Origin: Chiloscyllium plagiosum
Taxonomy: Eukaryota
Direction of reading: 5' to 3'
DNA length: 64,000 bases
Assembly: GCF_004010195.1 (NCBI RefSeq)
Contig: NC_057715.1
Span: 76,594,217-76,658,216, forward strand
Shown: positions 4,402 to 64,000 of the stretch, piece by piece
Numbering within the stretch: the first letter of the stretch is position 1
Layout: the number at the start of each line of letters is the position of its first letter
The notes under the pieces: generated by a model
What the model saw: the letters and a program-made list of their open reading frames with translations, nothing else
Database searches by the model: none
Told to the model about the DNA's origin: nothing
Made by a program: the position numbers and the translations under genes

Positions 4402-4535
4402 CGATTTTGGATTAGTGGTGCTGGAAGAGCACTGCAGTTCAGGCAACTCCTCGGTTGCTGCCTGAACTGCTGTACTCTTCCAGCACCACTAATCCAAAAT
4501 CTGGTTTCCAGCATCTGCAGTCATTGTTTTTACCT
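4402..4535 (+). mobile_element. Fold-back Penelope-pLTR-derived element with the centre deleted
   Basis: Inverted arms 4403-4501, tail ccagcatctgcagtcattgtttttacct, 10-bp TSD aaatggttcc at 4392-4401 and 4536-4545. Confidence 0.8.
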
Positions 4536-4895
4536 AAATGGTTCCTGAATACAGCTCACTGACTTAATAGCACTGCAACCGATGTAACTGGACATGCTCT
4601 AATGGAAAGCAAAACCAATATCCAGGAGCAGTAGTTCGACCTTTTTTAAAAAATATCTCTGCCGACAGGAAAGGAGGCAATGGCAATGTCCATGAAGGCA
4701 AGAGGAGACCTGTCTCATTCAGGACACTTCTCGTGCATCTGCCAATGTGAGAAACTCATCTCAACTGCCATCTATCAGAATGAAACAGCAATGTCTCAGG
4801 ATAGGTGCATGATTTTACAAACTGCAATCTCTTTGTGTATTGCTCTAAAGACATTCCCATGATACTCAACAAGTAGAGCTCCAACCATCTTTTGT

Positions 4896-6160: not shown

Positions 6161-6569
6161 TGTCTTCTTCATAACTTCATGCGCATTACTATTTCACATC
6201 AACTCACTAAGAGGCAGCAGCAGGACAATCAGCCCCAAAACTTACTCATGCCTAGTCTGATCGCAACCTGAAATCTGCGTTCCCTCCAGACTTCCTGGCC
6301 GACCCGATTCACAGAGTTAAATTAATCTCTAAACCATTACCACCCTGACAATAGACAGTCTGCTGAAATTCAATTCTGAAAGCGGAGGGCATCTAGGGTT
6401 CATTTGCTAGGAACATGTTTGTAGATCACAAGGGCACTTCACAGTGTATTAATGAACTTCATTTTAATCAAATAAACTTCACACCAATTAGCAATCTATT
6501 CTCCCATTTCAAGTGTAATTTATATAGGGTGTTGTGCAGATGACCTGACTTTAATGATACTTCACAGTC

Positions 6570-6665
6570 AAGATTAGAATGGTGCTGGAAAAGCATAGCA
6601 GGTTGGGCAGCATCCAAGGAGCAGGAAAATCGATGTTTCGGGCAAAAGCCCTTCATCAGAAATGA
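6570..6665 (-). mobile_element. Single arm of the Penelope-pLTR-derived element
   Basis: Minus strand reads ctgatgaagggcttttgcccgaaacatcg..gatgctgcc..ttttccagc. Confidence 0.75.
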
Positions 6666-6982
6666 GGAGTTTCAACCAGCATTATATAATACAATACATA
6701 ATGACAGTGTGATACTTCACGGTCGCCTAGTGTGAAAGTGAAAAAATTGTGTTAATGACAGCTCTGTTTTGTTTGGTGTGGTATATAGTTTCGTTAGCTA
6801 ATGTTGATGTTGCTAGATACCAGGGAGTGATCAGTATCACAGTAAGGGGGTGCATCTAGTGAAAAACCAGCTGGTGCCGGTGGTATGGTTTGGGATGCTT
6901 CCAGGGCAATTTCTGATGTTATGTGATTTGGTAGTCACCGCATGCAATAGAATCCATCATAACAGCATAGTTCCAGCAATTT

Positions 6983-9755: not shown

Positions 9756-10617
9756 TTCATTCATTGGAAACCACAAAAACATTCTCTATTTCATATTCCA
9801 CACTCTTCAATTTGAGTTACCACCCTCCTAGCAGTCTCCCAGAAAAGACGTGCAAGCATACATGTGTTGCTTTTTATTCAACTTGCAATGAGCAAGGTCT
9901 CAGAAATAATGCTGTAGTGACAAGATTTTAGCAACTTTAATTGAGTGATGTATACAATCCAGGTGAACTCTTGTTAGAGGACTTTGCAAGTATGTGCCTG
10001 GTAAGTTTTGGACAGGTTTCAAATGAATTAGTCTCCTACAACTGCAGTTAAAATTAGACCTTTTTATGCACATCTAGCACAGCAATGTTTTGGTTCAAAA
10101 GATGTCAGTTCCAACTTTACAGCACTTGGGGGGGGGGCAGGGCTCCCTATCAGCCTACATTCTGTTCAAGTCCATGGAATAAAGTTCAACCCTAAGCAAT
10201 CTATTGGCCATTGATACTCTCTCCTTATGAGGTTTGGTTCATTCATTGTAATCATACCAGATGCAGCATTTCTGAATCCACACCTTGTCATATGGAACAA
10301 AAGTGGCAGAAAGTCATGTGCAATGTCTCCAAAATTTCATTCGGCAAGACACCAACATGGGGGCATTAAATACAAATTACATATACACATGATAAATTCA
10401 CCCAAAAAACACACACGATCAGTGTGATGCTGGGATCTAAATGGCAATAATTTAACTTGCCGCCTTGTCCAGACTTCACTGCTGTTTGCACCAAACACAC
10501 TGTCTCAACGGTACTGAACAAGATTCAAAAATAAGTATCCTGCAGTCCTCTTTCCTAAACTTCCACTTTCATGACAGTGAGGTTTACGACCATGCTATAA
10601 GGGATGTATAGATTGTG

Positions 10618-10830
10618 GCTGAAAATGTGTTGCTGGAAAAGCGCAGCAGGTCAGGCAGCATCCAAGGTGCAGGAGAATCGACGTTTCGGGCGTTTCAGGA
10701 ATTCTGAAGAAGGGCTCACACCCGAAACGTCGATTCTCCTGCTCCTTGGATGCTGCCTGACCTGCTGCGTTTTTCCAGCAACACATTTTCAGCTCTGATC
10801 TCCAGCATCTGCAGTCCTCACTTTCTCCTC
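10618..10830 (+). mobile_element. Fold-back Penelope-pLTR-derived element with a hammerhead-like core
   Basis: 73-bp inverted arms 10618-10690/10721-10793, 3' tail to 10830, 15-bp TSD gatg(t/a)atagattgtg at 10603-10617 and 10831-10845. Confidence 0.85.
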
Positions 10831-11937
10831 GATGAATAGATTGTGTCCAGATGAGGGTGCTGAATGCAGCTCCATCAATTCAATGCAGTACTGGGTGTCG
10901 GTAGACACAGCAGTTCATTAGCAGGTCATGAGACCTCCAGCATCTATCCCATTGTCTCAACATTTCCTTAAAGCCTTATTTACATCCTTCATTAAGTTGA
11001 GCTGATAATCTCACGAAATTTAGGAAGAGTAGATCCCCAGTAAACTAGTTGCTAACTGCTTTATAGAAATCCAAAATAATAAAATGCAATTTTAAGGCAT
11101 TATGCTAGGCCCAAGTCAGAACTTCGACATCGATGGCACAAACTCGGCGATCAATCATGTCAATCTTACAAAAGATTGTTTATCTCGGTAATACAGGGCC
11201 AAGTGTGGAGACGCACTATAACAACATTTTGAAGATAAATGCAAACTAAACTAATTCGTCTACGTCACCCATCAATAACGTCCTAAAGAATCGGTACATG
11301 GTGAATATACTGAATTAGACATTAGTTATAGTTGCAATGACAATGTCGAGATCTTTGTTCGTTTAAGGCTCTTCAGAGTCAATTCAGGCCCATTGTCAAA
11401 AAACAGTTTCAATAATGTACATAAGTTAATTTCACACTGTTTTGAAAGTAAACTTACAAATTGTCACTAAGTTTGTACAACGGTCTTTCAAGAAATTTGC
11501 AAAACGACACCTACGAGCGCACTGAATTGCTTGCAAGCCACAATTAATTCTTTTGTTTTTCTACACCGTTTGCCAACCACGACATTCTTTTTACGAAGGC
11601 ATAATAAAAGTAGGCAATTCAAACTGTCGACAAGCATGCACTTTGGGCGATATTTAATCTAGAACTGCGTCTCAGTCACAGCCAGTGCAAAAACATCGCT
11701 GCCGACAAGCAGGAAGTTTGTTGAAACATTTCGCCAAGACAAAAAAGGGGAAATACAAGCAATAAAGAAGAAACAAACTCGAGGTCTGCACTGTAAAGAT
11801 GTTTAAATCCCCATATCGGTATCATGTATTGTATGAAGTTAGTAAATTATGATTCAAGGCAGAAATGAGAAACCAAAAAGCTGTTTAGCAAAAAAAAATG
11901 GCGCCTATAAAATCTAACACACATATGCTCAACTTAC

Positions 11938-27100: not shown

Positions 27101-27731
27101 TGAACTTGTTTGATTCATGAATAAATGCAGATTATGCTAGCAATGCTTTCCATTCCATTCTTAAATGCAGACTCACTTGCTAGTTTTTGAAAGACATTGT
27201 GAACAACCTCTGGCTATCACTTCTGATTGGTTTCCAAAAAGAAGGACTTTACATGTGGGTTAAATGATTTTAACCTATGCTTTGTTTTAGATCAGTGTTA
27301 GTGAAAAACAGCTGTATTTAATAAAAGTTGGGATTTGCAGGAAAAGCAGCTGAGACATAGTGGTTATCTCAGCTTGTCGCAAGGCCAACTTCTTTGTGTC
27401 TGGTTTAGTAGTGTCATTTTTTTCTATTCCTCTTTGGAGACTTGAGCAAACTTTTGCAAGTGTGCAATATCATCAACATATTCTTCTTGCCCTACCTCTT
27501 TCCTAAAATAAGCTTGTTTTATGTGATGCACTATGGTCACATGGAACATTAGAAAAATATAAACAGTCAGCTTAATCATTAGCTGGTATTATATTTGCTG
27601 TTTCTTATTAAAAATCTTTAATCAATTCAGTTAAATTGCATTTAACAAGTCAAAAAGAGGGCCAATGTATTGGTTAACTGGCAGACAATTAAATCCATGC
27701 AGCTGGGGAAGGATGGTTCCTGTTAAATGGT

Positions 27732-27930
27732 AGGAGAAAGTGACGACTGGAGATCAGAGTCAGAGTGTGGTGCTGGAAAAGCACAGGTCAGGCAGCATCA
27801 GAGGAGCAGGAGAATTAATGTTTCCAGCATAAGCACTTCATCAGGAATGAGGCTTGTGAGCCAAGGGGTAGAGATATAATTGGAGGGGGTTGGGGCTGGG
27901 GGAAAAGGTGGATGTGAGTGCGATAGGTAA
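27732..27930 (-). mobile_element. Penelope-pLTR-derived fragment with adjoining purine-rich sequence
   Basis: ggagaaagtga..gctggaaaagcacaggtcaggcagcatc..cttcatcaggaat, same family as 44823; a shorter piece lies at ~28272-28342. Confidence 0.75.
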
Positions 27931-29653
27931 TTAGGAACCGTGCTTACCAAGGAGGGGTTAGAAAGAATGTAAAGACAACTTGTGGGGAAATTGGTGTTGT
28001 ACAGTGAAGAGCTTACATCCAACAAGAATTCTGCTTCATGTTAGGAAGGACAAAAATACAAACTGCAGTAGTGAATTAGACTAAACTCAATTCTGATCAA
28101 TGATTAGTTAGTCATGATTAAAGAGAATATAAACTCAAACCAGATTTCATTAGTAATGAAGAAAACAAGAACTTAATCTCTGAAATATGGCAAAAATATT
28201 TTTAATTACTTGCAAACTTAAACTGTACCCCCTTTAAATCTAAACATTCATTTACACTTGGGATAGATATGAAGAAAATGAGGACTGCAGATGCTGGAGA
28301 GTCCGAGTCGAAAAGTGGCATTGGAAAAGCACAGCAGGTCAAGATGGACAAGCCAGATAAGACAAATAGATTGTATTTATCAGGAATACTGTGGGCGAAA
28401 ATATAGGCAAAAGGGCACAGCATCAGATTCCAATCAAAAATAAGAGACAAGGTGAATTTTTGATTTTTGGCCAAAGTATGAATTATTTTTAGATCATTTC
28501 AGTAGCCAGCCAATTGGACCTCATCTTGCCTTGAACTAGACCTTCTTTCTTTCTTTTTGCAAAATCTGTGTTATTTCTTTCCTGATTTTTAAAAAGAGGG
28601 AGAGTAATATTGTTTCCTAGCAGGCTTGACCAAAATTTGCAAGTTGGTGTCAGGAAGTTTCTCTATTTCCAAAGAGATGTGATGCTTCTAGCAAAATTTG
28701 TGCTCTTTTGAAACTGTTTAGTGACCATGCTATCACTTCTTCTATCAATAAAAAAAATTGGTAATCTAAACTTTCTTTTACTCACTTTAAAATTCCAGAT
28801 AAAATGTGTAGTCTTTGCATTGTTCTAAAAGCTTTCCCATCATTGAGGCGAATCCAACTGGTCTGTATTCCTGGATTTAGTAACATTGCAATTAAGCCCT
28901 CCGACACCATCCCTATATATAAAAGGAGATCGTGGCCAGTGCAGCTAATTTAACTTTCACTATTAAAATATCTACACTTAGATTATACAAATACTTTTCC
29001 GTTTGTTTGTTCAAATACAGTAATTGAACCACCCTCCTTGTCTCCCTTCCCCATCATCCATGTAATTCCTTTCGCTTTTGGCTCACTAGTAGTAGTCTTG
29101 TTTAATTGATGCAGACTGGTTTTCTGTTGGCCAGAAATGTACCTGCACTCCTCCCTATTGACATATTTCTATTTACTGCCTACATGTATCAGGAATGAGG
29201 CTTGTGAGCTAAAGGGGTAGAGATATAATTGGAGGGGGTTGGGGCTGGGGGAAAAGGTGGATGTGTATGTTTTCTGCTGTCAAAGTGCCATCATTGTCAC
29301 TTTCTGTGCCTGTGCTGTCTTGTTCACTTTAAATTTGTTTTCCACTGTCCTGTTCTAAGGAATTAAAAAAAGTTTCTATTTTGCACTGAGAATTCATTGT
29401 TTCAAATGGAAAAATGTATACTTTAATATTTCAGAACATAATCTTTTCCTGACCACTTGTACAATACAAGTACAAACTCATGGTTCATGAACAAAACTTC
29501 ACTTTTCCAGGCTACATTGCAAGTATAATAAGTTAACTTCAAATCAAGATGCAGCTTGACCTTAAATCTTTGAGATAGTGTGTAAATGTAATTCTTATTT
29601 GTAAAGAAGTAATTTTGATATTCTTTCTTTTCAATACAGCTTATACTTGAGAC

Positions 29654-30695
29654 ATGAATATTGGGAATAATGAATCTATAGGTATGAATTCAATGCCAGA
29701 AGACCAATACATTGAACAACAAAAATACTTGGGAATTGGAGGAGGAGTACACGGTGATATGTCAACCGCAATCTCAAACGCATCCACGGCCTTTGATGGG
29801 TCTCAACATGTGAACAACCATCTCAAATCTAACTCTGATAGCTCCCGTTGGAAACCTGTAGAAGGTAGTGTAACCTGTTCCCAGAATGAGGATGATGACG
29901 ATGACGTTGTGTTTGTCGAACCTTCCCTTTCTGCAAATTGTCATGCGAACACACGAGCAAACAAATCCAGTGCTTCAGTTGCAGTGTTCCAAAATCCAGA
30001 ATCCATAGGAAATGAAATGAATATATCATTGCCACCAACAGGAAAAGATCTCGTGTCACCAGTAGAGCCAATCATAATTGATGATGAGGAAGAAGGAAAC
30101 CCTGAGCCAGGAAAAGCTGCCACATCTGGAAGATGCGCTGAAAGAAATGGATTCAGCGAACCAACTGACTTGGGTGCCCACAAAGTTGATTTCCATAATA
30201 TTGGAGTGCCGTATGTGGATAATCAGGGTTTATTTTGTACTCCAAATTTGGAGAATAACAATTTAAATTGGGAATGTAGAACAAGTATAAAGGAAGTTGA
30301 CTTGAATAAATGCCACCCTTTACAAGCAACAATGCTTCCAGATACCAGACGAGGTAATATTTTGCCAACAAATGGAAACGAAGCATTAAGCCAGGGTATA
30401 AGTACCGAACCAGACTCTGAGATACAAATAACTTGTGTCACCACATTGGATGCCAGTTCTAAGCCCGTTACAAATGAACCACCAGTACAATGTTCTGGGG
30501 AAACTGATTTAGATTTAATGATTTGCAATGTTACCTCTCTTCACGATCAGAAATTTGAAGGTGTAGATGAGGGTGTACAGAAACAAGCTTTTCAATATAG
30601 CACAGGGACTTCTAACTCTGACAATATTATGGATGGTGCTGGAAATGGATTTCTAAATGGTGAATCTTTGCTTTTGACATCCCAACACAAACATG
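29654..30695 (+). CDS. ZMYM2: Zinc finger MYM-type protein 2, first coding exon (exon 29640-30695); acidic N-terminus with SUMO-interacting motifs
   Basis: EDDDDDVVFVEP, PIIIDDEE, TEPDSEIQITCVTTL, DLMICNVTSL and NGES match ZMYM2; acceptor tttcttttcaatacAG|C at 29639, in-frame TGA just before the ATG, phase-1 donor CATG|GTGAGT at 30696. Confidence 0.93.
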
Positions 30696-33339
30696 GTGAG
30701 TACTTTACAGATTATTTTCTCATCAACCTATTCAGGATGTTATTACACATTACTAGAGCAGGTGAGACTTTAAGCTGGTACTCTTGTCTCTGAGGTAAGG
30801 ATACTATCACTGCTCCACACGAGCACTGGTGAGTACTTTTTAAAATGTGTTCACAAGTGAAAAAATACTGATGCATAAATCTATAACGATAACTTTTATT
30901 ACTGATTGATGATTAAAAATGCTTAGATCATTGCTTAAATAAAATCCCAACTAATAGTTGATTAGTGTTAATGAACATGGGAAGCCAAAATCAAATGCAA
31001 TATTCTGGACATGCATGGTGAGAGTGGTGGTTAATTCCATTGGATAGTGATGTGTGGGTGTGGATAGGAAATTAGGGTATGAAAACAGTCATGAATTTGG
31101 ATGTTAACTACGAGGATGTGGTTAAAGAAGGGCAGGGATTCAGTGACATAAACAGGGAACATGAAGGCTTCTTAGTGGCAGGAATGATTGCTAAAATACT
31201 ACCTGGAGATTATACCTAGAATTTTGCTGTATAAGAGGTGACAGCATTTCTGGAATGTTGATTTTGTTCATAGCTGAATGAAGTGAGGAAATCAACTTCA
31301 CTGCTAATGGGATGCTGAGGAGGGGCAATCTCTGCAATGGGGCAGCCTTGAAGAATTTCTGCACTTAGGAAAATAATGAGCCAAGTGGGCTTTAGGAACC
31401 CATTAATTAATGAATGAGGCACAACATTCTAATTTGGGTGCAGTCTTAGTCACAATGTGTTGAATGGGATTGCATGAGGAGAGCTTGGCCTCCCCCAGTC
31501 GAAGCAATTGACTGTCTGTGGAGCCATTATGTTTGAGTGAATAAGAAAGCCAGGTAAGATTCCACTCTATACAAGGTTCATTAGTGGAAGAGGAGAATGT
31601 TGTGTGGAGTGGAAAGCCAGAGTGCTTGATGGCTCTGAGAAAGTGTTTAATTTAGGCCATACAGTTGTTGACTAAGGTCATTTTGGGTTGGTCAGAGCCT
31701 GCAGCTGTATGAAAACAAAATTGATTGTTGTGAATTAGCCACTCTTGCTGAGGGTTGCTGGCAAATGCCAGCTACTGGTGTGAGATGGGGTTGCGGTAAA
31801 CCATCTATTTGATAGTTCATAGTAATCGCTAATAACAGCAAAACAAGCTAGCTCTCTCTATTATAGTCTGCAATAAACTGAACTTATGACCAAATCTGTA
31901 GCAACTTCTTTCAATGGTATGGTGATTCTTCCAGTAAAATGTAGAGTGGAGAATAGTTATACAATAGAAACTAACTATTCCTCCTGGAAAAATTTAAATA
32001 AGTGTTTCAGATATAATAATTGACTGAAGTGCATCTGCTATATAATTGCGTTGCCATCTTATTTTTATGTACCAGTCATGGTAATGAAAGCTTTCAATAG
32101 CTATTATTTATGGGTAAAAAAGAATCCCATGTGCTAACCCACTTGGGAAGGTGTGCTGATTCTCAAGCCCCACTACTCTATGATTTAAACACTGACCAGT
32201 AAGATTTAATAAGAACTGTTCATTATAAACAACAATGAAGATCAACATTTGGCTCTTAATTAAAGCTCTTCCTTTTCAAAATGCTACACACACAGACAAG
32301 CACAGACTAAATAACAAATATTGTTTTATGGATGTGGGTGGGGAGGGACTGGAACTGGGATCCATAGTTAATAGTACCAGTCCGAGTTTGCTAAGATGGT
32401 CCTTTTTGGTTAGCCTGGAATTTTGGTTCGCCTGGAATTTTGGTTCTTGAATCTCTCTCTCCAGGTACCTTCACTTCAAGTTAGTACACTAACTGCAAAG
32501 TCTTACTGATTAAGGGTAACAGATTACAAAAACTGACTTTCTTCAGGCTTGAAGTATTTTGTCTGCAGAGGGGAGGGACACCATCTGCCCTTCCAGAGCT
32601 CGCTGTATTGTTCACACTTGAGCTGATCAGCCATTCTGGGACCAAATAGAGCTTCACCAAGCTGATTATCTTTGGCATCCACAACTGGCCACAATTGCAC
32701 AAACCGATCTGTTTGTACTGGCCAAATTTCTTTGTGCATGCACTCCCTTGTACTGACAGTCTCCTGATAGTTTCCCCATTACTTGAACAAAGCAGGAGTG
32801 CAGGCACCACTTTCCCAGTTTCGGTAACTTGTCTTTAAAGTGCTGCAAATTTTTTCATAATTCTTGGTTTTGAAATGGTCCTTTTTTTAAAAACCATTTT
32901 CAGCCCACAATCAAAAATACAGAAAATAAAAAGTCTTCACACCCAGATATGGGAATTCAAAGTGATTTTGAATATTGCAAGATGGACAATGAAATACTTT
33001 TTTCCTCACTCTAACCTAACTTATTTCATAGATGGTAACTAGATTTCAAAATTAAGTTCAGAAGTTAATAACTCTAAGCTTTAAAATAGCCACTTTTATT
33101 TCAGTTATGATTTTGAACATTGAAAGATTTTCAGTTACTTGAGGATTTTAAAATCTAAATGATTAATTTCTGTGGAAACTAAAATAGATCACTTCTGTGA
33201 ACAGATTTTGCAGACAAATGTTAATCGTTAGTTAGAATTACAAATATAGACTTCCATAAATATTAAAACTTTTGATGTAAATGAAATGTATGCAGTGGCA
33301 GTGTCACTGGATTAGACATTGAGTCCAGCTGATGTTCTT

Positions 33340-35559: not shown

Positions 35560-35970
35560 AAGAGTGCTGGAGAAACTCAACAAGTCTGGCAGTATCTGGA
35601 GAGAATGAGTGAGTTAACATTCAGTCCAGAGCCCTCTGTCATAAAAGTCCCTTTGAAAAGGTGATACTTATACTGATGGGGTTAGAATACATGGCAATGG
35701 TGCTGAGACAGGCAGACAAAGTGGATAAGCCAAAAATGGTAAGTGTTGATAAGGTGCTCAGTTTAACAGTTTCAGAATATGAATACCTTCCTGCTTGTTA
35801 GTTATCCTCCCTCCACTCCACCTTTTTAGGTCCTGTTTTGTTTGAAAAATTGGCTTGGTTAGGAGCAACCCAATCACTTTTCCCCAATTCTGATGAAGGG
35901 CCACTGAACTCTTACATTCCACAGATGATGCCAACCTACTAACTTTCTCTAGCAATTTGTCTTTTTTTTA
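35560..35970. mobile_element. Old Penelope-like inverted-pLTR remnant
   Basis: gctggagaaactcaacaagtctggcagtatctg at left; ctgatgaaggg..ccacagatgatgccaacctact..tctagcaa at right, in inverted orientation. Confidence 0.5.
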
Positions 35971-36435: not shown

Positions 36436-36887
36436 TCCTGCCTGCCATCATAAGGTCAGAAATAGGGTCTAGTTCTGTGCTGCATAACTCTATCCTCTTT
36501 GGTGCAGCCAATCCAGGCCATTCATAATCCCAAACTAAACTAGTTCCACCTGCCTGTGCTTGGCCCATGCCCCTCCAAACACTACTAATTCTTGTACTTA
36601 TCCAAAATGTCTTTTGAACACTATACAACATTCACCATTTCCTCTGAAGTTCATTCCACAGATGATTTTAAAAAATTGCAACTACTGTCTTAACTCTCTC
36701 CTCTTAAATATGCCCCCTCTTGAAATCCCTCACCCTAGGGGAAGGAAACACTTGCCATATATCCCTCCTTTTATAAAAACCTAACCAGGTCAAGTGTCAA
36801 CCTCCTACGCTGTAGTCAAGGGAGTAAATTCCCAGCCTATTCAGACAGACACTCTTCAGAACTCAAACCCTCAATTCCCAGTAACAT

Positions 36888-37640
36888 GCTGTGGTTCTGT
36901 TCGCTGAGCTGAAAGTTTTTGTTGCAAACGTTTCGTCCCCTGTCTAGGTGACATCCTCAGTGCTTGGGAGCCTCCTGTGAAGCGCTTCTGTGGTGTTTCC
37001 TCCAGCATTTATAGTGGCCTGTCCCTGCCGCTTCTGGTTGTCAGTTTCAGCTGTCCGCTGTAGTGGCCGGTATATTGGGTCCAGGTCTATGTGTTTGTTG
37101 ACAGAGTTTGTGGATGAGTGCCATGCTTCTAGGAATTCCCTGGCTGTTCTTTGTTTCACTTGCCCTATAATGGTAGTGTTGTCCCAGTCAAATTCATGTT
37201 GCTTGTCGTCTGCGTATGTGGCTACTAGGGAAAGCTGGTCGTGGCACAAAACGACACGACCAGCTATCCCTAGTAGCCTCACACGCAGACAACAAGCAAC
37301 ATGAATTTGACTGGGACAACACCACCATTATAGGGCAAGTGAAACAAAGAACAGCCAGGGAATTCCTAGAAGCATGGCACTCATCCACAAACTCCGTCAA
37401 CAAACACAGACCTGGACCCAATATACCGGCCACTACAGCGGACAGCTGAAACTGACAACCAGAAGCGGCAGGGACAGGCCACTATAAATGCTGGAGGAAA
37501 CACCACAGAAGCGCTTCACAGGAGGCTCCCAAGCACTGAGGATGTCACCTAGACAGGGGACGAAAAGTTTGCAACAAAAACTTCCAGCTCGGCGAACAGA
37601 ACCACAGCAACGAGCACCCAAGCTACAAATCTGCTCAAAC
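36888..37640. mobile_element. Penelope-like element 3' end duplicated as an inverted repeat
   Basis: ~355-bp arms around an 11-nt spacer (37244-37254); each arm encodes HEFDWDNTTIIGQ..AREFLEAWHS (GIY-YIG C-terminus); 3' tail 37610-37640; 12-bp TSD tcccagtaacat at 36876-36887 and 37641-37652. Confidence 0.9.
36924..36963 (-). ncRNA. Putative minimal type-I hammerhead ribozyme
   Basis: GCA-CUGAGGA-U-GUCACCU(AGAC)AGGGGAC-GAAAC-GUU-UGC: core, stem II and 3-bp stem I. The + strand twin at 37533-37572 has GAAAA in place of GAAAC. Confidence 0.65.
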
Positions 37641-38147
37641 TCCCAGTAACATTCTGGCAAATCTCTTGAACGGTCTGCAGCTTAATATCCTTCCTATAAT
37701 AGGGCAACCAGAATTGGATGTAGTGCAGAAGCGACCTCAATGTCCTGTATGACTTCAACTCAGAGTCCCAACTTCTATACTCTGGTACAAAGGCAAGCAT
37801 GCTAAATGCTTTAACTACCCTGTCAATGTGATGCAAACTATAAAAAGAGTCATGTACCTGAACTCCTAGGTCTGTTCTACATCACTACCCAAAGCCCTAC
37901 ACTTAAAGTCCTGCCCTTGTTTGTTTTTAAACCAAAATGGAATACCTTGCATTTATCCAGATTGGGCTGAAAAATGGCAGATGGAGTTCATTGACCCATT
38001 TGATCAAGTTCTCTACGTAATCTTAGGTAACCTTCTTTGCTGTCCACAATACCACCAATCTTGTTGTTTTGTAGATAGCACTAACTAACCTTCTGTATTC
38101 TCATCCAAAGCATTTATATAATTGAGAATCAGAAAATTGGACCCAAC

Positions 38148-38280
38148 TAGGTAAAAACAATGACTGCAGATGCTGGAAACCAGATTCTGGATTAGTGGGG
38201 CTGGAAAAGCACAGCAACTCAGGCAGCATCAGAGGAGCAGTAAAATTGATGTTTCAGGCAAAAGCCCTTCATCAGGAATA
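38148..38280 (-). mobile_element. Single arm plus tail of the Penelope-pLTR-derived element
   Basis: Same subfamily as 4402 and 41402; minus strand ctgatgaagggcttttgcctgaaacatc. Confidence 0.8.
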
Positions 38281-41200
38281 CCAGGTACCAGTGGCACCAC
38301 TGCTAATCAGAGGCTTCCAGTCCAAAAAGCAATCCTGTCTCCTACCATCAAGTCAGTGTGTATCCAATTGGCAAGCTCACCCTGAATCCTATGTGATCTA
38401 ACTTTACGTAGTCTACAATGCAGAACCCTTTCAAAGGCTTTACTATAGTCGAAGTCAACATGTGCCTCTCTGCCCTCCTTGAATCTTGGTTATTTCTCCC
38501 CCCCCCCCCAAAAAAAGTTCTGTTCTTATTTGTCCAAATAAGACAATTGGCTGAATTTAGCACTCAGGACAGAATTCACCACTCATCTTGCTGACAACTA
38601 CCCACTGACAGCAAAGGTTTCCACTATTCCAATGTTTTTGCAATCTTGGCCATCTACTGGGCATCTGTGGAGCCTGTGAGTAAAGCAAGCAATAGAGGTT
38701 ATTGAACCAGTTATATTGAAATATCCACACTGATTGTGCAGTCTCCCGACCAGGAAGTATACAGAAGGAAATATTGGATTTAAATGATAGTTACAAAATA
38801 TTTTGTAACTGGATAGGAATGAGAGAGCTTTATTTTCAGTAACTTCTTGGCATCCTGCTACTTTAACATTCCTCAATGGGAAATGAGATCTCATTTGTAA
38901 AATTAACTGAGTTATGGTAGTTCAACAGTAATGATCAGTCTGTTAGTTAAAAAGCTTTCCTTGTAATATTAGTGCTAAATGTTTAAGCTGTTTTTATTGT
39001 GAACTGGCAAGTTAAGTACTCTGTTGAGATTGCAGTGCTGACTCTTATCAGCAAAGCCTACAGCAAGGCCTAGATAGAGTGAATACGAAAGACCTATTCC
39101 TCTTGAGATAGATAGTCAAGAAGCAGATTTAGATAATAAGGATTAAAGGGAGTTGAAGTATTTTTACCCAAAATGGTAATGTTACTTGCTGCCTGAAAGT
39201 GATTGAGACAGCTACATTTTGAATTTGAGTATATGAATATGCAGTGAAAATGTTACAACCTATAAAAAGGTTGCAAGACAAGAGCTTGAAAGTGATTAGG
39301 CCAGATAGCGGTTTTGGCTGGTAGAAACAGTAACTTCTTTCCATTGTGTAAGTTTCTTGCATTCTGTTTTATTTAATTGTATACACAGCAATATGGATTT
39401 AAGCTATACTGTATATGTGTAGGTTCCAGAATTTACCTTAGTAATGGCACAGCTATCAATACTTATTACAACTAAATCCAGGCCAATGTCAACCCAGCAA
39501 GGATCCTGCAAGATTTGGGGCAGGATATAACTGACTGAAGAGGTTGTGGGATTCTGATCACCTGACCTGCAGTATCCAAATCATGGCACTTGTGGAAATA
39601 ATTGCAGTTGAAGTAGACTTCATGTCATCATGGTTTCTGTGAAATCACTTTTCCATAATGTTTTTCACAAATTAATTTGCTATGAGCTTTTGTACACAAG
39701 ACTGAAATCAATTAACGTTAAAGTTTTCAAACAAAGTCACGAGCAGTACATGTATGAGATACTATGAATTTTCAGTCAATACTTCAAAAATTGGATCCAG
39801 TTAACTGGGTAAATTGCTGCTGCAATTTGTGGCATTTGTACCACAGCAATATTGAGTCTCCAAAAGAAAACTAATTAGCATGGGCACTGACATCCCAGGG
39901 AGTTCACATACCTGTTTGAAGATTGAAAATTCCAGTTTGTGTGCTGGTCAGAGTGCCTGCGTCCATATTTCACACCAAAAAAACCAAACAAAGTTTGGCC
40001 ATTGACATCTTCCACACTTTTTGAAACAGGTGGCCTTCTCTTGAGAAGGTGCATAGGTTAGCAAGTAGGGAAAGAGTTAATTTGAGTTTTGTAAAACAAG
40101 ATCAGCTGAGCATGACTCCGATAAGAACTTAGTTAACGCTGGAGGCAGGGATAATGGGTTAACAAAGTGGAAAAGCAGTCATTATGCAGAACATTTATCA
40201 CTTTGGAATTATTCAGTATGCAAGGTCAGCTAAAGGGACAAAGTATCTATTGTATGAATCTAGTTAACAAGGTTAAGAACATTTATTGTATAACAGTAAA
40301 GGGCTTGGTCTCTGCTATTGATACTTATTAATTGGGTGACTATTACAATCAATGTGTACATTGCCTTATCTGCATGCTCTTCCCTGTAAAATGTAGTTAA
40401 TGGAGAAACTGCTGCTTGAAAGCAGTGAACTCGTGTCTCTGTGCACATGGGTGATAGTTTTTTGCCTCCATTTTTATTATGGGCCCTGGAGGGACAGAAC
40501 AGTCTCTTGAGCATTTTGCTTTGACTGAGGTAGGGCAACACTAAATTACTGCTCTGAAGTATTAACAATTTATGAAGTCAGTCTAACACTACATCTAATT
40601 TGGAAAATGACCTTGTATTTTTAAAGCATGCAGAGAGGCAGCATATTGTGTTAAAGATCAGCGGAGAGTGGTTTGTAAACAGATACACTAAAGCCCCTCT
40701 GTTCAACCAGTCTGATCTCGACTGACAAACTAGCTGCAAGATGTCAGGTGACCAGACTAGTTCTAATTTAAAGATAGCAGATAGAGGTTTCTTGCAATCA
40801 CAAAACCTTCACTTTACAAGATTATCAACACCATTCAAGAAGCTGGCTATGAGAAATCAGACTGAGTCAATGGTAATCTCTTACCTTCAGTCCTTTTCTG
40901 TGTATGAGTGAGTGTGTACACTTGCTTTGGAGAGCGATAGTTGAGAATAAAACAACCTCTAGTTTTAAAACTGCCACACATTTGCTGTTGAAGTATTAAT
41001 TTTGGTACACACTAGGTGCAATGGGGGGGGGGGGGGGGGGGGAGAAAGATGGAAGGGGGTACAAACCATGCAGATTACAGGCAGAGAAAGACCACACCCA
41101 TTGTCCATAAGAGATAAAGTCCATTTTTAAATCTATAAAGTTTAATACTTAATATAGAAACAATTATGAATTTTGGAATAAATCTCTAGCTTGATATTTG

Positions 41201-41401
41201 AGCCTTAAATCTAACAGCTATGATTATGAACATAAGCTGGAGCTGAAGTAGGTATCATGTTAGTGGTTCACTAAACCATAAACTGAACACCAGGAGAGTG
41301 GAGGGTAAACAGTGAATACTTTGCGGGTTCTTAGTTTCAGAGTTTTAGACTACCTCCCCTCACACCTACTCCAGGTCACCTGACCAGCTCTAAGGGTAAC
41401 A

Positions 41402-41597
41402 GTTCAGGCAGCAGAGGAGCAGTAAAATCAACGTTTCAGGCAAAAGCCCTTCATCAAGAATACAGGGTATTCCTGATGAAGCGCTTTTGCCTGAAACGTT
41501 GATTTTACTGCTCCTCTGATGCTGCCTGAACTGCAGTGCTCTTCCAGCATCACTAATCCCAAATCTGGTTTCCAGCATCTGCAGTCAGTTTTTAACC
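41402..41597 (+). mobile_element. Fold-back Penelope-pLTR-derived element with two opposed hammerhead-like cores
   Basis: Arms centred on ~41465; TSD ctcta(a)agggtaaca at 41388-41401 and 41598-41612. Confidence 0.85.
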
Positions 41598-42101
41598 CTC
41601 TAAAGGGTAACATACACACCTAACTTATGAATAACAGCCCTTCCCTATTTATTGGGGTATTCCCCTTAACTAATAGATTTCTATGTAAAATATGTTCAGT
41701 TCGGACTTAGACAAGCATTATATTTGTATTGTCAGGAATAACTAAAAGGAAAAACTACCCTTCCATAGTCTCTGACAATCAGTCAGTCTCTCCTGGACTG
41801 CAATTTAAAACCCCACTCCAGCAGGAGCTGCCCTGACCAGCATGGTCTCCTGTAGACCTAGTCTTTGAGCCACTACCACTGCTCGCATCTTTTTTCCCCT
41901 TAGATGTATAATTCTGGCCTTGAATGCCTCTTTGGAATATCTTCAACCATGAGGTACCTGCCCTTCTTAACTTCACTCTACCACCTCTAGCCTCTTCGAG
42001 CTGCATTAAGTCAAACGTGGTTGTCAGCTGGTGGTTGACATTGAGAAGCAGTGCTCACTGTCATAATCTTCAGAGACAAATTGTAGATGCTGTAATCCAA
42101 G

Positions 42102-42272
42102 GTAGATAAGAGGGTGGGAGAACTCAGCAAGCCAGGCAGCATCAAGAGGTGGAGGAGTCTACATTTTGGGTGTAAACCTTCAGTCCTGAAGAGTTACACC
42201 TGAAACGTCAACTCCTCCACCTCTTGATGCTGTCTGACTGGCTATGTTCACCCAGCCTCCTGCTTGTCTACT
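42102..42272. mobile_element. Fold-back element of a further pLTR subfamily
   Basis: cagcatcaagaggtggaggagt / actcctccacctcttgatgctg arms; central ctgaaga..gaaacgtc. Confidence 0.7.
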
Positions 42273-42929
42273 CCCAATCTTTATAGTGTTCACACCACAC
42301 TAGGGTGCCCTTAGATCACTTGTTCCAACACCTTTCCTCTTAACCAGGGAAGGGTTACAACTTGTTCCCCACATTAAACAGCTGTCTGATATGAATAACT
42401 CAGACGTGGACAAGTGTAATGTTGGGTGTTTTTATGTCAAATCTTTCCTCTCAAAGAAGTCCTTCACTAGATTAAAGACTGGATCAATCTGGGTAGCATT
42501 TCACATTAATTCGTTGACACCAGTACCTTGCTTCTTGTGAATTCTCAGTCATGGTAAGCTTAACACTATCTGCATTGCAGTGCTTCTCTAGCTATTGGTA
42601 TCTGATTTCATAGGGGTAAACAGATCTCTGTAGGCATGCTGCGGTCTTTGACGGTATCCCTGTATTCAGGCCAGAAATGGAGGTTAGTGGCCTATGGTCT
42701 GTCAACAACATGAAGTGCCTGCCATGAAGGAAATGGGTGAACTTAACACTGAAAACAGTGCCAATCCTTTTTTCACTTTGACATACTTCTGTCAACTCTT
42801 AACAGAGTACTGTAATACCAAAAGGAAGTTGCTTGTAGAGGACCAAATCTCTGGTATCACTATTGTCAGCAGTAATTGGGACTACATAGTGGCCCCATCT
42901 GCCTTCTCCCAAGTCAGCCTGCTGAACAG

Positions 42930-44152: not shown

Positions 44153-44822
44153 CCAAATGAACAGAAGTGGTACTGACCCACACGTAGGGCTAGGTTGACA
44201 GTGACCTTAAATCCTCACCAAGCCATCTGTCTAAGGTGGGAACAAATGGAGTGGCCCGTTCATTGAGCGTAACTGATTCCAACACTCCCAAGTTAATCAG
44301 CTATTCCAGTTAAGCTAGATGGCACATGGTACCGGTCATGCCTTCAGACTTGTTGGCTGAGCCTCCTGCTTCAACCAAAGTTTAATTTCTTCTTCCATTT
44401 CCCATGGAGTTCCTCTGAAGGAATCCTATACCTATCCAGAACTCTTGCATACTAGTTTTAAGTCCATCAACCTATTAACTTGAATTTCTGTAATATTCTA
44501 AACTATATAAAAAATTTGGCACAGTTGTCTCTTTACAAGTACATAGCTCTTCAGTGGCATCACTTGTTCCATGTAACTGTAGCATACAGTTGGCAGGCTT
44601 CATGGCAGTGCCTTTAAGTATTCCCTACATACTGATTCAGGAATCAGGGACACCAATGTATCTGCATCTACTTCCATCATAACTATCTTGCCCTCTAATT
44701 TGGGCAGTACCCAGAAACAATCAGCTTCAGAGGATACTTAACCAAAACTCTGCTGACTCTTTTGCTTCTCCCACAGACCGGTCTTGACTCAGTCTACTCT
44801 GGCTGGCAGCATGTATCTTATG

Positions 44823-45031
44823 GAGAAAGTGAGGTCTGCAGATGCTGGAGATCGGAGCTGGAAATGTGTTGCTGGAAAAGCGCAGGTCAGGCAGCATCCA
44901 AGGAACAGGAGAATCGACGTTTCGGGCATAAGCCCTTCTTCATTCCTGAAGAAGGGCTTATGCCCGAAACGTTGATTCTCCTGTTCCCTGGATGCTGCCT
45001 GACCTGCTGCGCTTTTCCAGCAACACCTTTC
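44823..45031 (-). mobile_element. Fold-back Penelope-pLTR-derived element with a hammerhead-like core
   Basis: Tail at left, inverted arms ~44856-45035, exact 16-bp TSD cagcatgtatcttatg at 44807-44822 and 45032-45047; CTGAAGA-A-GGGC(TTAT)GCCC-GAAAC-GTT at 44946-44973. Confidence 0.88.
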
Positions 45032-48000
45032 CAGCATGTATCTTATGTCTTGTCTTCTGAATGGTCTCCTTTGAAACATATTGCTCGACTTGTACCCAGC
45101 AATCTTATGCAATATGCCCAACTTGCTTACACCTGCTGCACTGCACTCCCACCATGTTGGCTCCTTGTGGCCACTGGGAGGGCCACAGGCACCATTCTAC
45201 AGTTGGTATCATACTATGCTGAGTATCCTGGTTGGCAGCCATCCCCATCAAAGTAGCAAATTTCAAAAGCTGCCTTGAAATACAGGTTTATCCTTGCTAA
45301 TACCTTCCTTTTTAGAAGTCATGGTGGAGGCCACAAACCAAAGAGTCCAACAAAGTTTCTTGGAGGAGCCTTCCAAATTAGCAATGTTCCACTAACCTCA
45401 TTTAAGATGGCTATAAATTGGGTAGTGAACTCTTTCATCCTGCACCTGTTTATGAAAATGGAAAGTGTGATAGTCTGTGGTGTTTAATGCAAAACTAATT
45501 AGTCTTCTCCACAGATTTCTCTGGTTTCAGACTCATTAGAATTGTGAAGGTCTTTCTCCCAGTGATGCTTAAGAAAACCATTATATCTCCAGCCATTTTG
45601 TCACCTTACGCAGAATCTAACTTTGTCTCCTCTTCAAATGGTCCCACCATCTGGATTTCCTACCGTTCACTTTCTCCCCCCACTTGAGTATAGTAGCCGT
45701 TCAGACTAAGTCCCCTAGGTGAGCACTGTACACATCGGCGTCCCTCACTGTTTATTAGCGTACCTTTCTTCCCTGGTGTCAGCCAGTCTCAACAACAATT
45801 TCAATAAGCTCCGCATGAGTACTCTCCTCTTCAGCCATCTGTAGCCTGAATCTCCTAACTACTGCTCTCACCCTACACCCTGTTGCATCCCATTCTTCCA
45901 TGGCGTTCACCACAGCCAGACTTCCTTCACGACTGCTTCTCTTACTTCTGTAAAGCAACACCATTTTTAAGTCCAGACAACGTTCTTACGCTTGACAAAA
46001 GAAATGGTGTTCATTCAGTTTGAGAGCCAGACCCCCCACTCATCACCAGTTATGATTGTGGTTCACTAGAACTATAGATGGAAAACAAGTTTGACAGAGG
46101 GTAAACTTGAACAGGGAATACTTTAATGTAGGTCTCTCAGTTGGTTTTAGTCTGCTTCCCCAGTGCCTGTCTCTGGGTCACCTGACCTACACGAGTAGAA
46201 TACACAACTATATACATAACAGTAGGTCTTTCAGCCTCACTCTTGTTCCACACTCAAGATCATGGCTGATCTGATTAAAACCTCCGATCTGTATGCATGC
46301 ACACATACACCTCAATCTTTCATCCTCCTTTCTTAGGGATGATCAATCCACCTGTGCCTTAGAAGTATTCAAGAACACTACTTGCACCACATTTTCAGGA
46401 AGGGTTCCAAACACACACCTCATCTATTTGTAATGGGCTACCTCTTTATTGTGTAAAAAAAAGTGACTCCTAGTTCTCTGTTTAATATGGAAAGAAGTTG
46501 CACGTAATTAACAGACAGGATTTTTTGCATTAGTCATTGTCAGTGAAAATTTAAATACAATTAAAGTATAGTTCTACTAGTGACTTTAAACTTACTTTAA
46601 GATATTGGTGAGTTTTATTTATAAATTAGAGTAATTAGGTTAAGACTTATATTTATTGGAAATTAGAAATTAAAGAAATAGTACCTGAATTATCCATCCA
46701 GCCCTGGACCCGATTCAAAACAATCATGGCTGATCTTCATCTTTGCCTTCATTTTCCTGCCCATTCTCAGTACCCTTCAAACTGAGACACTAAATATAAA
46801 TTCAACAATGGAGAATAAGAATTCCAAAAAAACTCAACTTGAGCAAAGAAATTTCTCCTCCTTTCAATGCACGATGATCAGCTTATATTCCTGAGACCGT
46901 GTCCATAGAGGAGAAGAAATATTAATTTGTATCATACCAAGCCCTTCAATGTCATCTTGAGTTTAGAGGAATGAAATTATTAAAACACCAGAAAATATAG
47001 GCTTAATTAGACTGACATCCCAGGACAACCCCTTGTCCCAAAAACTGCTGAAACTTTTGCTGTTTGATGTCCCATTGTCAATTCAAATCCATCCTTCAAT
47101 ATGGAGGCTAAATCTGAACACCAGGATATTTTCAGCAAAATCTCTTTCCTTTAGTAATTTTAGTGTCCTTGCAATACCCACCAAATGCCATTTATCCTCC
47201 TGATTAATTGCTGCACTTGAAGGCCAACCTTCTATATTCCTTGCATGAGTAAACTTGATTCTCCCTGAGCATCAGAAATGACTACATTTCATGGTATAGT
47301 GATTTGACTGAGGGCCATGTGGATCTTATTGACTGAGATTCTTGATTGGGATTGTTAAGCTGGGCCAATCAGAGGGTGCCCTGGCTGACAGCTTCAATCA
47401 AGAATCTCATAGTCCATGATACCCACCTGACCCTCATTCCAATCATTGCACATGCCTTTTTAAAAGTACCCTGCCTTTGTCATCTTAAGCGATTCTCGGT
47501 GCGTTATAACTATGAGCTGGGAAGGACAACTTTTTATTAAGAGCTTCTATTTTCTGAGGAGACTTCAAGCAAATCCACATTTATCTATCTGCTCTGAAAA
47601 ATCCATTCACATTTTGATGTGACAAATTTGACCTCAGCAACTGAGACAATCCAAAACCGTCAAAAACCATGAACAACATTTTAAATAAAACCATCCGCAG
47701 TAATCTTAATATTAGGAAAAGAGGCATACTACTTTGGCACTTTAACAAAGTATTTTTATTAAAACAAATCTAAAACCTGTATTCGAATCTGTATCTTTCC
47801 TACAAAGAATTGCTTCCTTGGAGCATACTTTGCCTCGGTGCCATGTTTCATTGAGCTTCATTAGCATTTGAGGTTTGTTATTTACAGGTTAACTAACAGG
47901 AGCAAAAGTATTAATTCCACCCACCTTTGTTGGCAGAGTTAACTATTTCCTTTAATGTTATGACCGATGGTGCAGTATTGTTTGGGGGTCTATACGTTAC

Positions 48001-48974
48001 TCCTGGCATTTTCTGATCCTTAATATTACTATTCCTAACCCCCCCACCCCGCGACATGTTGATTCAGCTTCCTAATTCCTTTGTGTCAAAACAATTTATT
48101 TTCTCACTAAAATCATCTTTTGCTATGGAAAATACACTAATTTCTACTTTTTAAAAAAATTCAAGTTGGAAATTAACCTTTGTTCATTGATGAATTGCCT
48201 TTCTTAATTAAGGATATGAAAACTGAAAATAGTTCTCCAGATGCTGTTTCATTAACACCATGTACAGTAGTAGCAACACTTCCTTGCTTTTATGCTCCAT
48301 TTCCCTTTTAATAACGGTCAACATTCAATTTGCCTTTCTGATTACTTGCTGTATCTGGATGGTGACTTTTGTGATGCATCTACCAGCGTACCCAGATCCC
48401 TTTGTACCACAGACCATTGAGTCTTCTTTGTTTATTTAATGTTCTGCTGGTCTGTTCTTCCAAAGTGCACAAGCTCACATTATCCCACATAATGCTCCAT
48501 CTATCAAGTCTTTATGCACTTAATCAGCTAAATCCTTTTACAGACTCTTTATATCCTTCCCAGAAGTTCTGTTTAAAAAAAAAAGTCATGTTGGACTTGA
48601 ATTGTTAACTGTGTGTCACTGTCCACAGATGTTGCCAAACTTGCTGAGTTTCTTCAGCATTTCCAAGTTTGTGCCACAACACTCTCCCTACAAATAGCTC
48701 ACCAATTCCTTGTCCGTGTTAACATGAGACCCAAAACCTTTGGTAATCGAAATACACTACATTTACTACTTCACCTTTAGCCATCCAGCTTGTTACTACC
48801 TCAAAAAACTGATTAGGCAAATACAGTTTCCATTTCCCATAATCATATTGACTCCACCTGATTTCTATCTCTATCCTTTTTTTACATTCCTAGCTAAAGT
48901 TACTACCAGACCAGTCAGATCTCAGACTAAAATCTAGTTTGATGGATCGTTTTGCCTTAACAAAGTGATCTTTT

Positions 48975-60696: not shown

Positions 60697-61196
60697 NNNN
60701 NNNNNNNNNNNNNNNNNNNNNNNNNNNNNNNNNNNNNNNNNNNNNNNNNNNNNNNNNNNNNNNNNNNNNNNNNNNNNNNNNNNNNNNNNNNNNNNNNNNN
60801 NNNNNNNNNNNNNNNNNNNNNNNNNNNNNNNNNNNNNNNNNNNNNNNNNNNNNNNNNNNNNNNNNNNNNNNNNNNNNNNNNNNNNNNNNNNNNNNNNNNN
60901 NNNNNNNNNNNNNNNNNNNNNNNNNNNNNNNNNNNNNNNNNNNNNNNNNNNNNNNNNNNNNNNNNNNNNNNNNNNNNNNNNNNNNNNNNNNNNNNNNNNN
61001 NNNNNNNNNNNNNNNNNNNNNNNNNNNNNNNNNNNNNNNNNNNNNNNNNNNNNNNNNNNNNNNNNNNNNNNNNNNNNNNNNNNNNNNNNNNNNNNNNNNN
61101 NNNNNNNNNNNNNNNNNNNNNNNNNNNNNNNNNNNNNNNNNNNNNNNNNNNNNNNNNNNNNNNNNNNNNNNNNNNNNNNNNNNNNNNNNNNNNNNN
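60697..61196. other. Assembly gap (500 N)
   Basis: Run of N. Confidence 1.
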
Positions 61197-63720: not shown

Positions 63721-64000
63721 ATTCATGGCTATCACTGTCGCCTTCACTCTCCACAAACCGTAAACTGAATGTTTCAGATTCTGTTGTGCCCATGGCGCCT
63801 CTTTCAAAACCAGTCTTCCAGTCCTCTGGACTTCAGCAGCAAGCTAAGCCATCTATGAAAGTGATTTGCGCTCACTGCAAAAAACCATTACAGAAAGGTC
63901 AAACAGCATACCAGAGGAAAGGTTCATCTTACCTCTTCTGCTCCACTACTTGCTTATCATCATTTTCTCATAAACCAGCTCCAAAGAAACTGTGTACTAC
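63721..64000 (+). CDS. ZMYM2: ZMYM2 next coding exon with the first MYM-type zinc finger (runs off the window; missed by the ORF track)
   Basis: Acceptor ttttatttcaAG at 63720, phase 1 matching the previous donor; (D)[55 protein letters not shown]. Confidence 0.96.

Follow-up and report, generated by a model that had tools for sequence, protein, structure and literature searches.

Mirror-image Penelope-like element ends form short hammerhead-bearing fold-backs in a shark genome

Background

When a hairpin of about 200 nt with a hammerhead ribozyme occurs again and again in a shark genome, has it spread by itself, or was it built anew from a larger element wherever it landed? The question is raised by a fold-back at 44823-45031, here called the exemplar, in a 64,000-nt stretch of Chiloscyllium plagiosum DNA from contig NC_057715.1. 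We call the whole stretch the window and count positions from its first letter; other loci are named after their approximate position. An initial annotation had attributed the hairpin to the hammerhead-bearing pseudo-long terminal repeats (pLTRs) of Penelope-like elements (PLEs). It left two options, namely extreme 5'-truncated, inverted insertions or a self-propagating, ribozyme-processed family resembling retrozymes or short interspersed elements (SINEs).

We find that the exemplar is a real, young insertion consisting of two mirror-image copies of a PLE end. The hairpin was likely assembled anew at each landing and is unlikely to be a self-spreading ribozyme RNA. We are inclined to read it as the terminal 90-125 nt of a PLE, present twice in head-to-head orientation and made in one event in which both nicked strands were copied and joined. 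The class and the layout are already known, so that what had been proposed is not new. Its value is that of a record of a mechanism. How the inverted repeats and tails of PLEs form is left open in PMC8557442 and PMC11167929, and the precise ends of the many short, young shark copies make it possible to tell two-strand priming from snap-back and to locate the 5' end of the RNA.

Results and discussion

The exemplar is a recent insertion

The two arms of the exemplar differ by 3 substitutions and one 3-nt gap over 86 aligned nt (3.5%). The predicted fold has -181.8 kcal/mol (z -21.7), and none of 200 shuffles was equally good. A 34-nt tail is found on the left side alone. An exact 16-bp repeat flanks the copy as a target site duplication (TSD), and none of 300 random position pairs reached a score of 10. 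The hammerhead triplet is GTT, that of the opposite arm of the same copy GTC. Since the inverted arm starts at core position +1 (positions with a sign are counted from C3 of the hammerhead core), the hammerhead on that arm lacks C3. The open reading frames (ORFs) spanning the exemplar had no Pfam matches, and a transfer RNA scan of the window found none.

A contig of 3,163 nt from organism B, a related species (X12 record 9), aligns to 44600-44791 and 45032-45300. Between the aligned blocks it has 17 letters where the window has 240, and it holds the target sequence once. The site is therefore empty in organism B, which confirms both the insertion and its TSD, and it is this empty site in a related species that makes the exemplar useful. 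The right junction is filled in a second sample of organism A (X5 record 23). The flanks diverge by 3.3% between the window and the organism B contig, which is close to the 3.5% between the exemplar arms. At two paired places (44861/45031 and 44905/44984) both arms have the same minority variants; the one at 44861 makes up about 37% of the depth in organism A versus about 2% in organism B, so that subfamilies must have gone on spreading after the species split. The family is very large, with 83,116 organism A (X1) contigs aligned to the exemplar; depth summed over contigs does not measure copy number, and we do not use it as such. On the single-arm reference (locus 27732), X1 and X12 both gave 20,097 aligned contigs, a figure that looks like a cap.

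The one-sided tail, the TSDs of 10-16 bp and the empty site bear out the earlier view of a target-primed insertion. A miniature inverted-repeat transposable element or fold-back DNA transposon would likewise be short, palindromic and abundant. Here, however, the ends are asymmetric by the 34-36-nt tail, the 5' ends vary and single arms occur. We rejected this reading, which seems extremely improbable to us, on the one-sided tail and the variable TSD length.

Family members in the window

The initial annotation had listed about a dozen copies. All 11 loci are real members of the family, as judged with a profile built from nine of them, but fold-backs make up only five (4402, 10618, 41402, 42102 and 44823), the other six being single arms. 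The two loci left out of the profile, 35560 and 48570, were still matched (Table 1), and the best match in the reversed window had E 1.7. The density is about one locus per 6 kb.

The further description of complete copies with arms, a one-sided tail and a TSD of 10-16 bp is exact for the exemplar; a TSD that stands clearly above the null is found at only 4 of the 11 loci (10, 15, 14-15 and 16 bp), with 42102 marginal. The tail measures 34 nt at 44823, 36 nt at 10618 and 31-34 nt at 4402. Similarly, a hammerhead core, said to be present in most copies, is kept at 7 of the 11 loci, but in each of the four fold-backs with a core it is intact on one arm only. The window has 9 matches to the core pattern CTGANGA-N9-19-GAAA-NN-TH versus 0.50 expected (0 of 100 shuffles reached this); seven matches belong to the short family and two to a coding element at 36887 that is described below. 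Among the 14 matches of the Rfam covariance models at E<=1 there was no hammerhead family, and the miRNA-like matches are generic hairpins below the gathering score.

Relation to known Penelope-like elements

The short family is, in our reading, a PLE stub. Its hammerhead, tail, TSD and inverted layout are all published traits of endonuclease-bearing PLEs, and the proposed pLTR hammerhead origin is upheld. Minimal type-I hammerheads have been described in the pLTRs of metazoan PLEs, with opposite-strand pairs 100-700 bp apart and many solo motifs (PMC4209133). A 5'-truncated inverted copy with a tail of 30-40 bp at one end is typical of PLEs (PMC8557442, PMC8969392), and Pen2/Pen2a of the rotifer Adineta vaga have inverted pLTRs, a TSD, a 31-bp tail and junction palindromes (PMC3846280). 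With the endonuclease-bearing insertions of these three papers the shark copies have in common the head-to-head, 5'-truncated inverted copy, seen at 5 of the 11 loci as the option of extreme truncation had it, together with the 30-40-nt tail, the TSD, the junction palindrome and the solo pLTRs. In contrast to those insertions, the shark copies consist of the pLTR end only, with no ORF, they stand at about one locus per 6 kb, and their 5' ends cluster right before the hammerhead. The TSDs also differ, with 10-16 bp in the shark family versus 8-10 bp in the rotifer PLEs (PMC3846280).

The shark hammerheads share with those of PMC4209133 the core boxes, the unpaired base 5' of stem II, the G-C closing pair and the palindromic CG that replaces helix III. 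In the shark fold-backs, on the other hand, the two motifs abut, one is usually broken and they are paired to each other, so that neither the monomer nor the dimer hammerhead fold is predicted for them. Neither this shark family nor twin priming by PLEs came up in our literature searches, judged by titles and the beginnings of abstracts and with most subscription papers, Repbase and Dfam outside their scope. The supplements of bioRxiv 10.64898/2026.07.22.740005 list families from one chondrichthyan.

A coding element of another family at 36887 serves as an internal control. This 750-bp fold-back has a GIY-YIG C-terminus, a hammerhead on both arms and a tail of about 28 nt, and its arms are 2.5% diverged. 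The arm peptide shares 92% identity with the end of P0002, which has a reverse transcriptase (RT; YVDD) and a GIY-YIG-like domain; the Pfam RT and GIY-YIG scores are under the curated cut-offs. A protein search with the ORF piece found none at near lengths and 8 matches among 152 candidates at longer lengths. A frame of 34 codons begins with an ATG where stem II starts and runs through the tail, as in the anole element, and the match to Poseidon PAc of Anolis extends down to this ORF start at stem II (PMC11167929); the short family, in contrast, has no ATG frame there. Its sequence suggests that the 36887 element is a Poseidon-like coding PLE with a GIY-YIG end. Thus, a coding PLE of another family builds the same arrangement, only larger, in the same genome.

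Two shark gene models, P0001 and P0003, annotated as isoforms of MAP3K7 and NT5DC1, contain a 91-92% match to the same piece of the PLE endonuclease, and P0001 terminates in it. Possibly, this is exonisation or an annotation error.

Ends of the arms and formation of the hairpin

Where do the arms end? The long arms end at the tail tip, since 447 X1 contigs leave the exemplar at 44822 into unrelated flanks. The short arms of 44823 and 10618 share their terminal base, 34-36 nt before the tail end, and 4402 behaves likewise within its subfamily. Furthermore, 338 X12 contigs leave the single-arm reference (locus 27732) near this inner terminus, at 27762, again into unrelated flanks. The two 3' termini match the situation in the anole element, whose RT starts at two internal RNA sites, one on each side of the tail; the Anolis PLE protein nicks and extends both strands, and hammerhead cleavage is not required for insertion in vitro (PMC11167929). 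Head-to-head products joined to each other are not part of what that paper describes.

The 5' ends lie at -8 to +1 in 10 of the 15 scored arms, and 6 of 10 loci fall within one 10-nt window (P 0.001-0.009). The 35560 arm, whose end is not definable, was left out of this count, and the statistics entered +35, +46 and +47 for three arms aligned at +38, +50 and +54, which leaves the cluster count unaffected. The raw-read depth on the single-arm reference is 458 at +4, 78 at -6, 43 at -11 and 3 at -25. The upstream stretch of this arm contains an initiator-like TCATTCC, with its A at -4, and 30 nt ahead of it a TATA-like word. Transcripts of PLEs are reported to start in the pLTR (PMC6765202).

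The mechanism that we propose would run as follows. Of the two target nicks, one would be extended from the tail end of the RNA and the other from the inner site. The resulting complementary DNAs (cDNAs) would both run to or near the 5' end of the RNA just upstream of the ribozyme, which is probably the transcription start, a few nt before the core. An RT that initiates in the 5' pLTR would thus run off the RNA after about 90-125 nt and leave products of a "strong-stop" kind. The 3' ends of the cDNAs would then anneal through 0-4 nt of microhomology and be filled in, and single arms would be the one-sided outcome. A similar joining is known from L1 twin priming, in which one cDNA is primed from each of two target nicks and microhomology brings the two together. 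The inversions of L1, however, come without sequence duplication, whereas both shark arms copy one stretch, so that two RNA templates or the re-use of one template are needed.

The exemplar junction speaks for separate priming. Its tail-bearing arm stops at +1 without the loop bases, the tail-less arm holds the 4-nt loop, and the two overlap in TCA. Because each arm lacks part of the other, neither is a plain copy, which fits two separately primed cDNAs. Locus 42102 favours priming on two strands as well, by 2 nt. On balance, we lean towards two-strand priming as the origin of the arms.

The second arm could also have arisen by self-priming, with the same PLE origin: the 3' end of a cDNA or antisense RNA strand would fold back and be extended along the strand's own sequence. 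The junction palindromes of rotifer PLEs are read in this way in PMC3846280, the minority variants common to both exemplar arms speak for it, and the junctions at 4402, 10618, 41402 and 36887 fit snap-back equally well. Nevertheless, we hold self-priming to be unlikely. The loop belongs to the tail-less arm in both the exemplar and 42102. Moreover, single arms (6570 and the loose ends at 27762) have the fixed inner terminus 34-36 nt from the tail end as well, and a second RT start explains this more readily than a self-copy that came to its end there.

Instead of a transcription start, the pile-up of 5' ends could mark a splice acceptor, or an RT stop at the pyrimidine- or C-rich tract or at helix I upstream of the core. 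An upstream pyrimidine tract ends in AG at -9 and the 6570 arm ends at -8, in D. virilis the 5' end of helix I is where the intron ends (PMC4209133), and the fall in DNA depth is spread over 25 nt. On the other hand, the listed loose ends have no common exon sequence beyond -8, and the commonest listed start is -4, the A of the initiator-like word 30 nt after the TATA-like word. The published pLTR starts (PMC6765202) also favour transcription. We regard an acceptor or RT stop as a possible but rather doubtful explanation.

Several points weigh against two-strand priming from an RNA that starts just before the core. The short arm of 41402 stops some 30 nt short of the usual inner terminus. The case for two strands amounts to 4 nt in the exemplar and 2 nt in 42102; a hairpin tip may also lose bases after insertion, and the same arm of the exemplar has a 3-nt deletion. 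In contigs the depth declines more slowly than in raw reads (69% at -6, 48% at -11 and <1% at -25, in both species), so that the 5' pile-up is a zone of 25 nt and not one base. The depth fall is also confounded: at several upstream positions the 27732 sequence is not that of most copies, and the loose ends at 27849 include a C-rich version of the upstream stretch. Finally, the short family has a single open frame, of 40 codons, and a search with it turned up no RT or endonuclease ORF, which is weak evidence; with no ORF-bearing parent linked, membership in the PLEs rests on hammerhead, tail, TSD and layout.

Fold-back junctions and self-propagation

If the hairpin itself were mobilised, identical fold-back junctions should recur at many loci. 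This test had been set beforehand, and its outcome speaks against mobilisation: the junctions in the window (five family loci and 36887) differ in six of six cases, and the reads of four runs contain at least 484 joints, with none dominant among the 15 listed. In 10 of these 15 the inverted arm is cut variably at 44844-44886 and joined to a sense arm starting at 44941-44945; one further joint starts at 44951 and four are the mirror case, in a table that does not resolve near-symmetric junctions, the commonest kind in the window.

Some junctions reach 15-40x single-copy depth, which has to be held against assembly at each landing. Some of the high-depth joints are confined to organism A; the joint 44942-44990, for example, has a depth of 232 in X1, 338 in X5 and 13 in X12. 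This leaves room for passive duplication or for rare re-mobilisation. That some whole hairpins were transcribed and re-inserted by the PLE protein with the junction intact, giving lineage-restricted junctions of high depth, appears improbable to us; if true, it would make them a new, fold-back kind of non-autonomous Penelope parasite.

Could the whole family then be a self-propagating, non-coding hairpin of the retrozyme or SINE kind, with its RNA cut by the hammerhead and mobilised as a unit by the PLE protein? The size of the family and the few junctions of high depth, some of them species-restricted, would agree with this, and non-autonomous derivatives of PLEs exist (PMC8557442; bioRxiv 10.64898/2026.07.22.740005). 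Non-LTR retrozymes (PMC7229834; bioRxiv 10.64898/2026.07.22.740005) are likewise non-coding, related to pLTRs and equipped with a type-I hammerhead. However, they are head-to-tail tandems of at least two consecutive complete ribozymes with a circular RNA, whereas the shark copies are head-to-head or solo. None of the 15 scored arms starts at the predicted cut (+28 from C3), no tandem array lies over any copy in the window, and 6 of the 11 loci are single arms. Nor do 14 arms, on both strands, match the A- and B-box patterns of RNA polymerase III, and the 3' ends of the family arms have no A-rich or simple-repeat tail of the SINE type. The different window junctions and the core that is intact on one arm only and buried in the duplex also speak against this idea, and the high-depth junctions could sit in duplicated or tandem host DNA. 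We consider such a self-propagating family very improbable.

The predicted folding is in line with a passive role. In the model the core of the exemplar is unpaired with a probability of about 0.001, and stem II could form around an open core only at a cost of about 33 kcal/mol. In a head-to-head layout, whichever strand is transcribed, the antisense arm comes first. The ribozyme is thus predicted to be a passenger that is inactive inside the duplex, and the latent self-cleavage sites that had been suggested are unlikely for the fold-back copies. PLE ribozymes cleave weakly even as dimers (PMC4209133, PMC6765202).

The family reads also hold a few go-back (head-to-tail) joints, one of them at depth 713 in X1, and tandem retrozyme-like arrays may exist elsewhere in the genome. 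In polyA single-cell reads (X21), one orientation is about 1.3-2.6x commoner over 44816-45031 and 27745-27865. Provided that first mates are antisense to the RNA, this orientation is the sense strand of the element. The bias runs against a depletion of the sense strand, though with one sample it is not a proper test. The X21 reads show no pile-up of starts or ends at the predicted cut, but a library of this type could not reveal one, and we do not count this as evidence.

Table 1. Coordinates of the exemplar, the other fold-backs and single arms, and a host exon in the window
Feature	Position	Strand	Remarks
Exemplar insertion	44823-45031		209 nt; fold-back hairpin of PLE pLTR end
Left TSD, 16 bp	44807..44822	+	Exact repeat of 45032-45047; single in organism B contig
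PLE tail, 34 nt	44823..44856	-	3' end of long arm; by alignment; terminus at 44822
Inverted arm (pLTR end)	44857..44942	-	5' end at core position +1; 3-nt deletion at 44881
Junction	44940..44946	+	TCA common to both arms, then 4-nt loop of sense-arm sequence
Minimal type-I hammerhead core	44946..44973	+	CUGAAGA, 4-bp stem II, GAAA, GUU; fully paired in hairpin
Predicted cut site of exemplar hammerhead	44973/44974	+	
Tail-less arm	44947..45035	+	Ends at second 3' terminus; last 4 nt common to target; end matches 10618 short arm
Right TSD, 16 bp	45032..45047	+	Exact repeat of left TSD
Fold-back of different, coding PLE family, 750 bp	36887..37637		TSD 36873-36886 / 37638-37651 (14 bp); arms ~355 bp
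Fold-back, subfamily B	4402..4535		TSD 4392-4401 / 4536-4545; both arms stop 3' of hammerhead
Single arm with core, without tail	6568..6667	-	5' end at -8
Fold-back, exemplar's subfamily	10618..10829		TSD 10603-10617 / 10831-10845; 36-nt tail on right arm; arms meet at AATT
Single arm with tail	27732..27931	-	Reaches ~87 nt 5' of core into parent's upstream sequence
Short single arm with tail, without core	28270..28343	-	
Old diverged single arm	35564..35644	-	Profile E 2.8e-6
Single arm with tail and core, subfamily B	38148..38281	-	5' end at about -6
Fold-back, subfamily B	41402..41597		TSD 41388-41401 / 41598-41612; both arms start at -6; 3-nt spacer
Old fold-back	42075..42275		Arms 19% diverged; degenerate TSD
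Old family fragment	48618..48660	+	Profile E 8e-4
Host exon, MYM-type (FCS) zinc finger	63792..63998	+	Pfam PF06467 E 9.5e-8

Genomic setting and minor observations

The window contains an RRM exon near 12 kb on its minus strand, presumably of PSPC1, and the MYM-type zinc-finger exon of a gene that we take to be ZMYM2. An ORF at 29651-30793 had no Pfam match; we assume it to be ZMYM2-like. The exemplar likely lies in a long intron of the MYM-type zinc-finger gene, between this ORF and the exon, and it is plausible that the family forms double-stranded RNA hairpins in introns. The near-perfect intronic duplexes of 90 bp are possible substrates for RNA editing.

Over 44816-45031, the RNA reads (X21) have 48 A>G and T>C places versus 13-20 in the DNA runs, which might hint at editing of the family's duplexes. 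We did not accept this excess as editing, as the p values (0.054, 0.21 and 0.0015) come from pooled loci and different data types with no matched DNA.

In two subfamilies the tail tip resembles a splice acceptor, with a pyrimidine run followed by TAG (44823-44840, 38146-38165 and 27730-27745, minus strand); introns are known in PLEs. The closest named proteins to one repeat of the window come from Chiloscyllium, Hemiscyllium and Rhincodon, in line with carpet shark DNA. There is an assembly gap of 500 N at 60697-61196, and an old imperfect hairpin at 47300-47445 (71-75% complementary) that does not match the family profile. Finally, the 78 bp at 29188-29265 are 97% identical to 27840-27916, the upstream part of a PLE arm 1.35 kb away, and are cut inside the hammerhead core, which looks like a local templated duplication.

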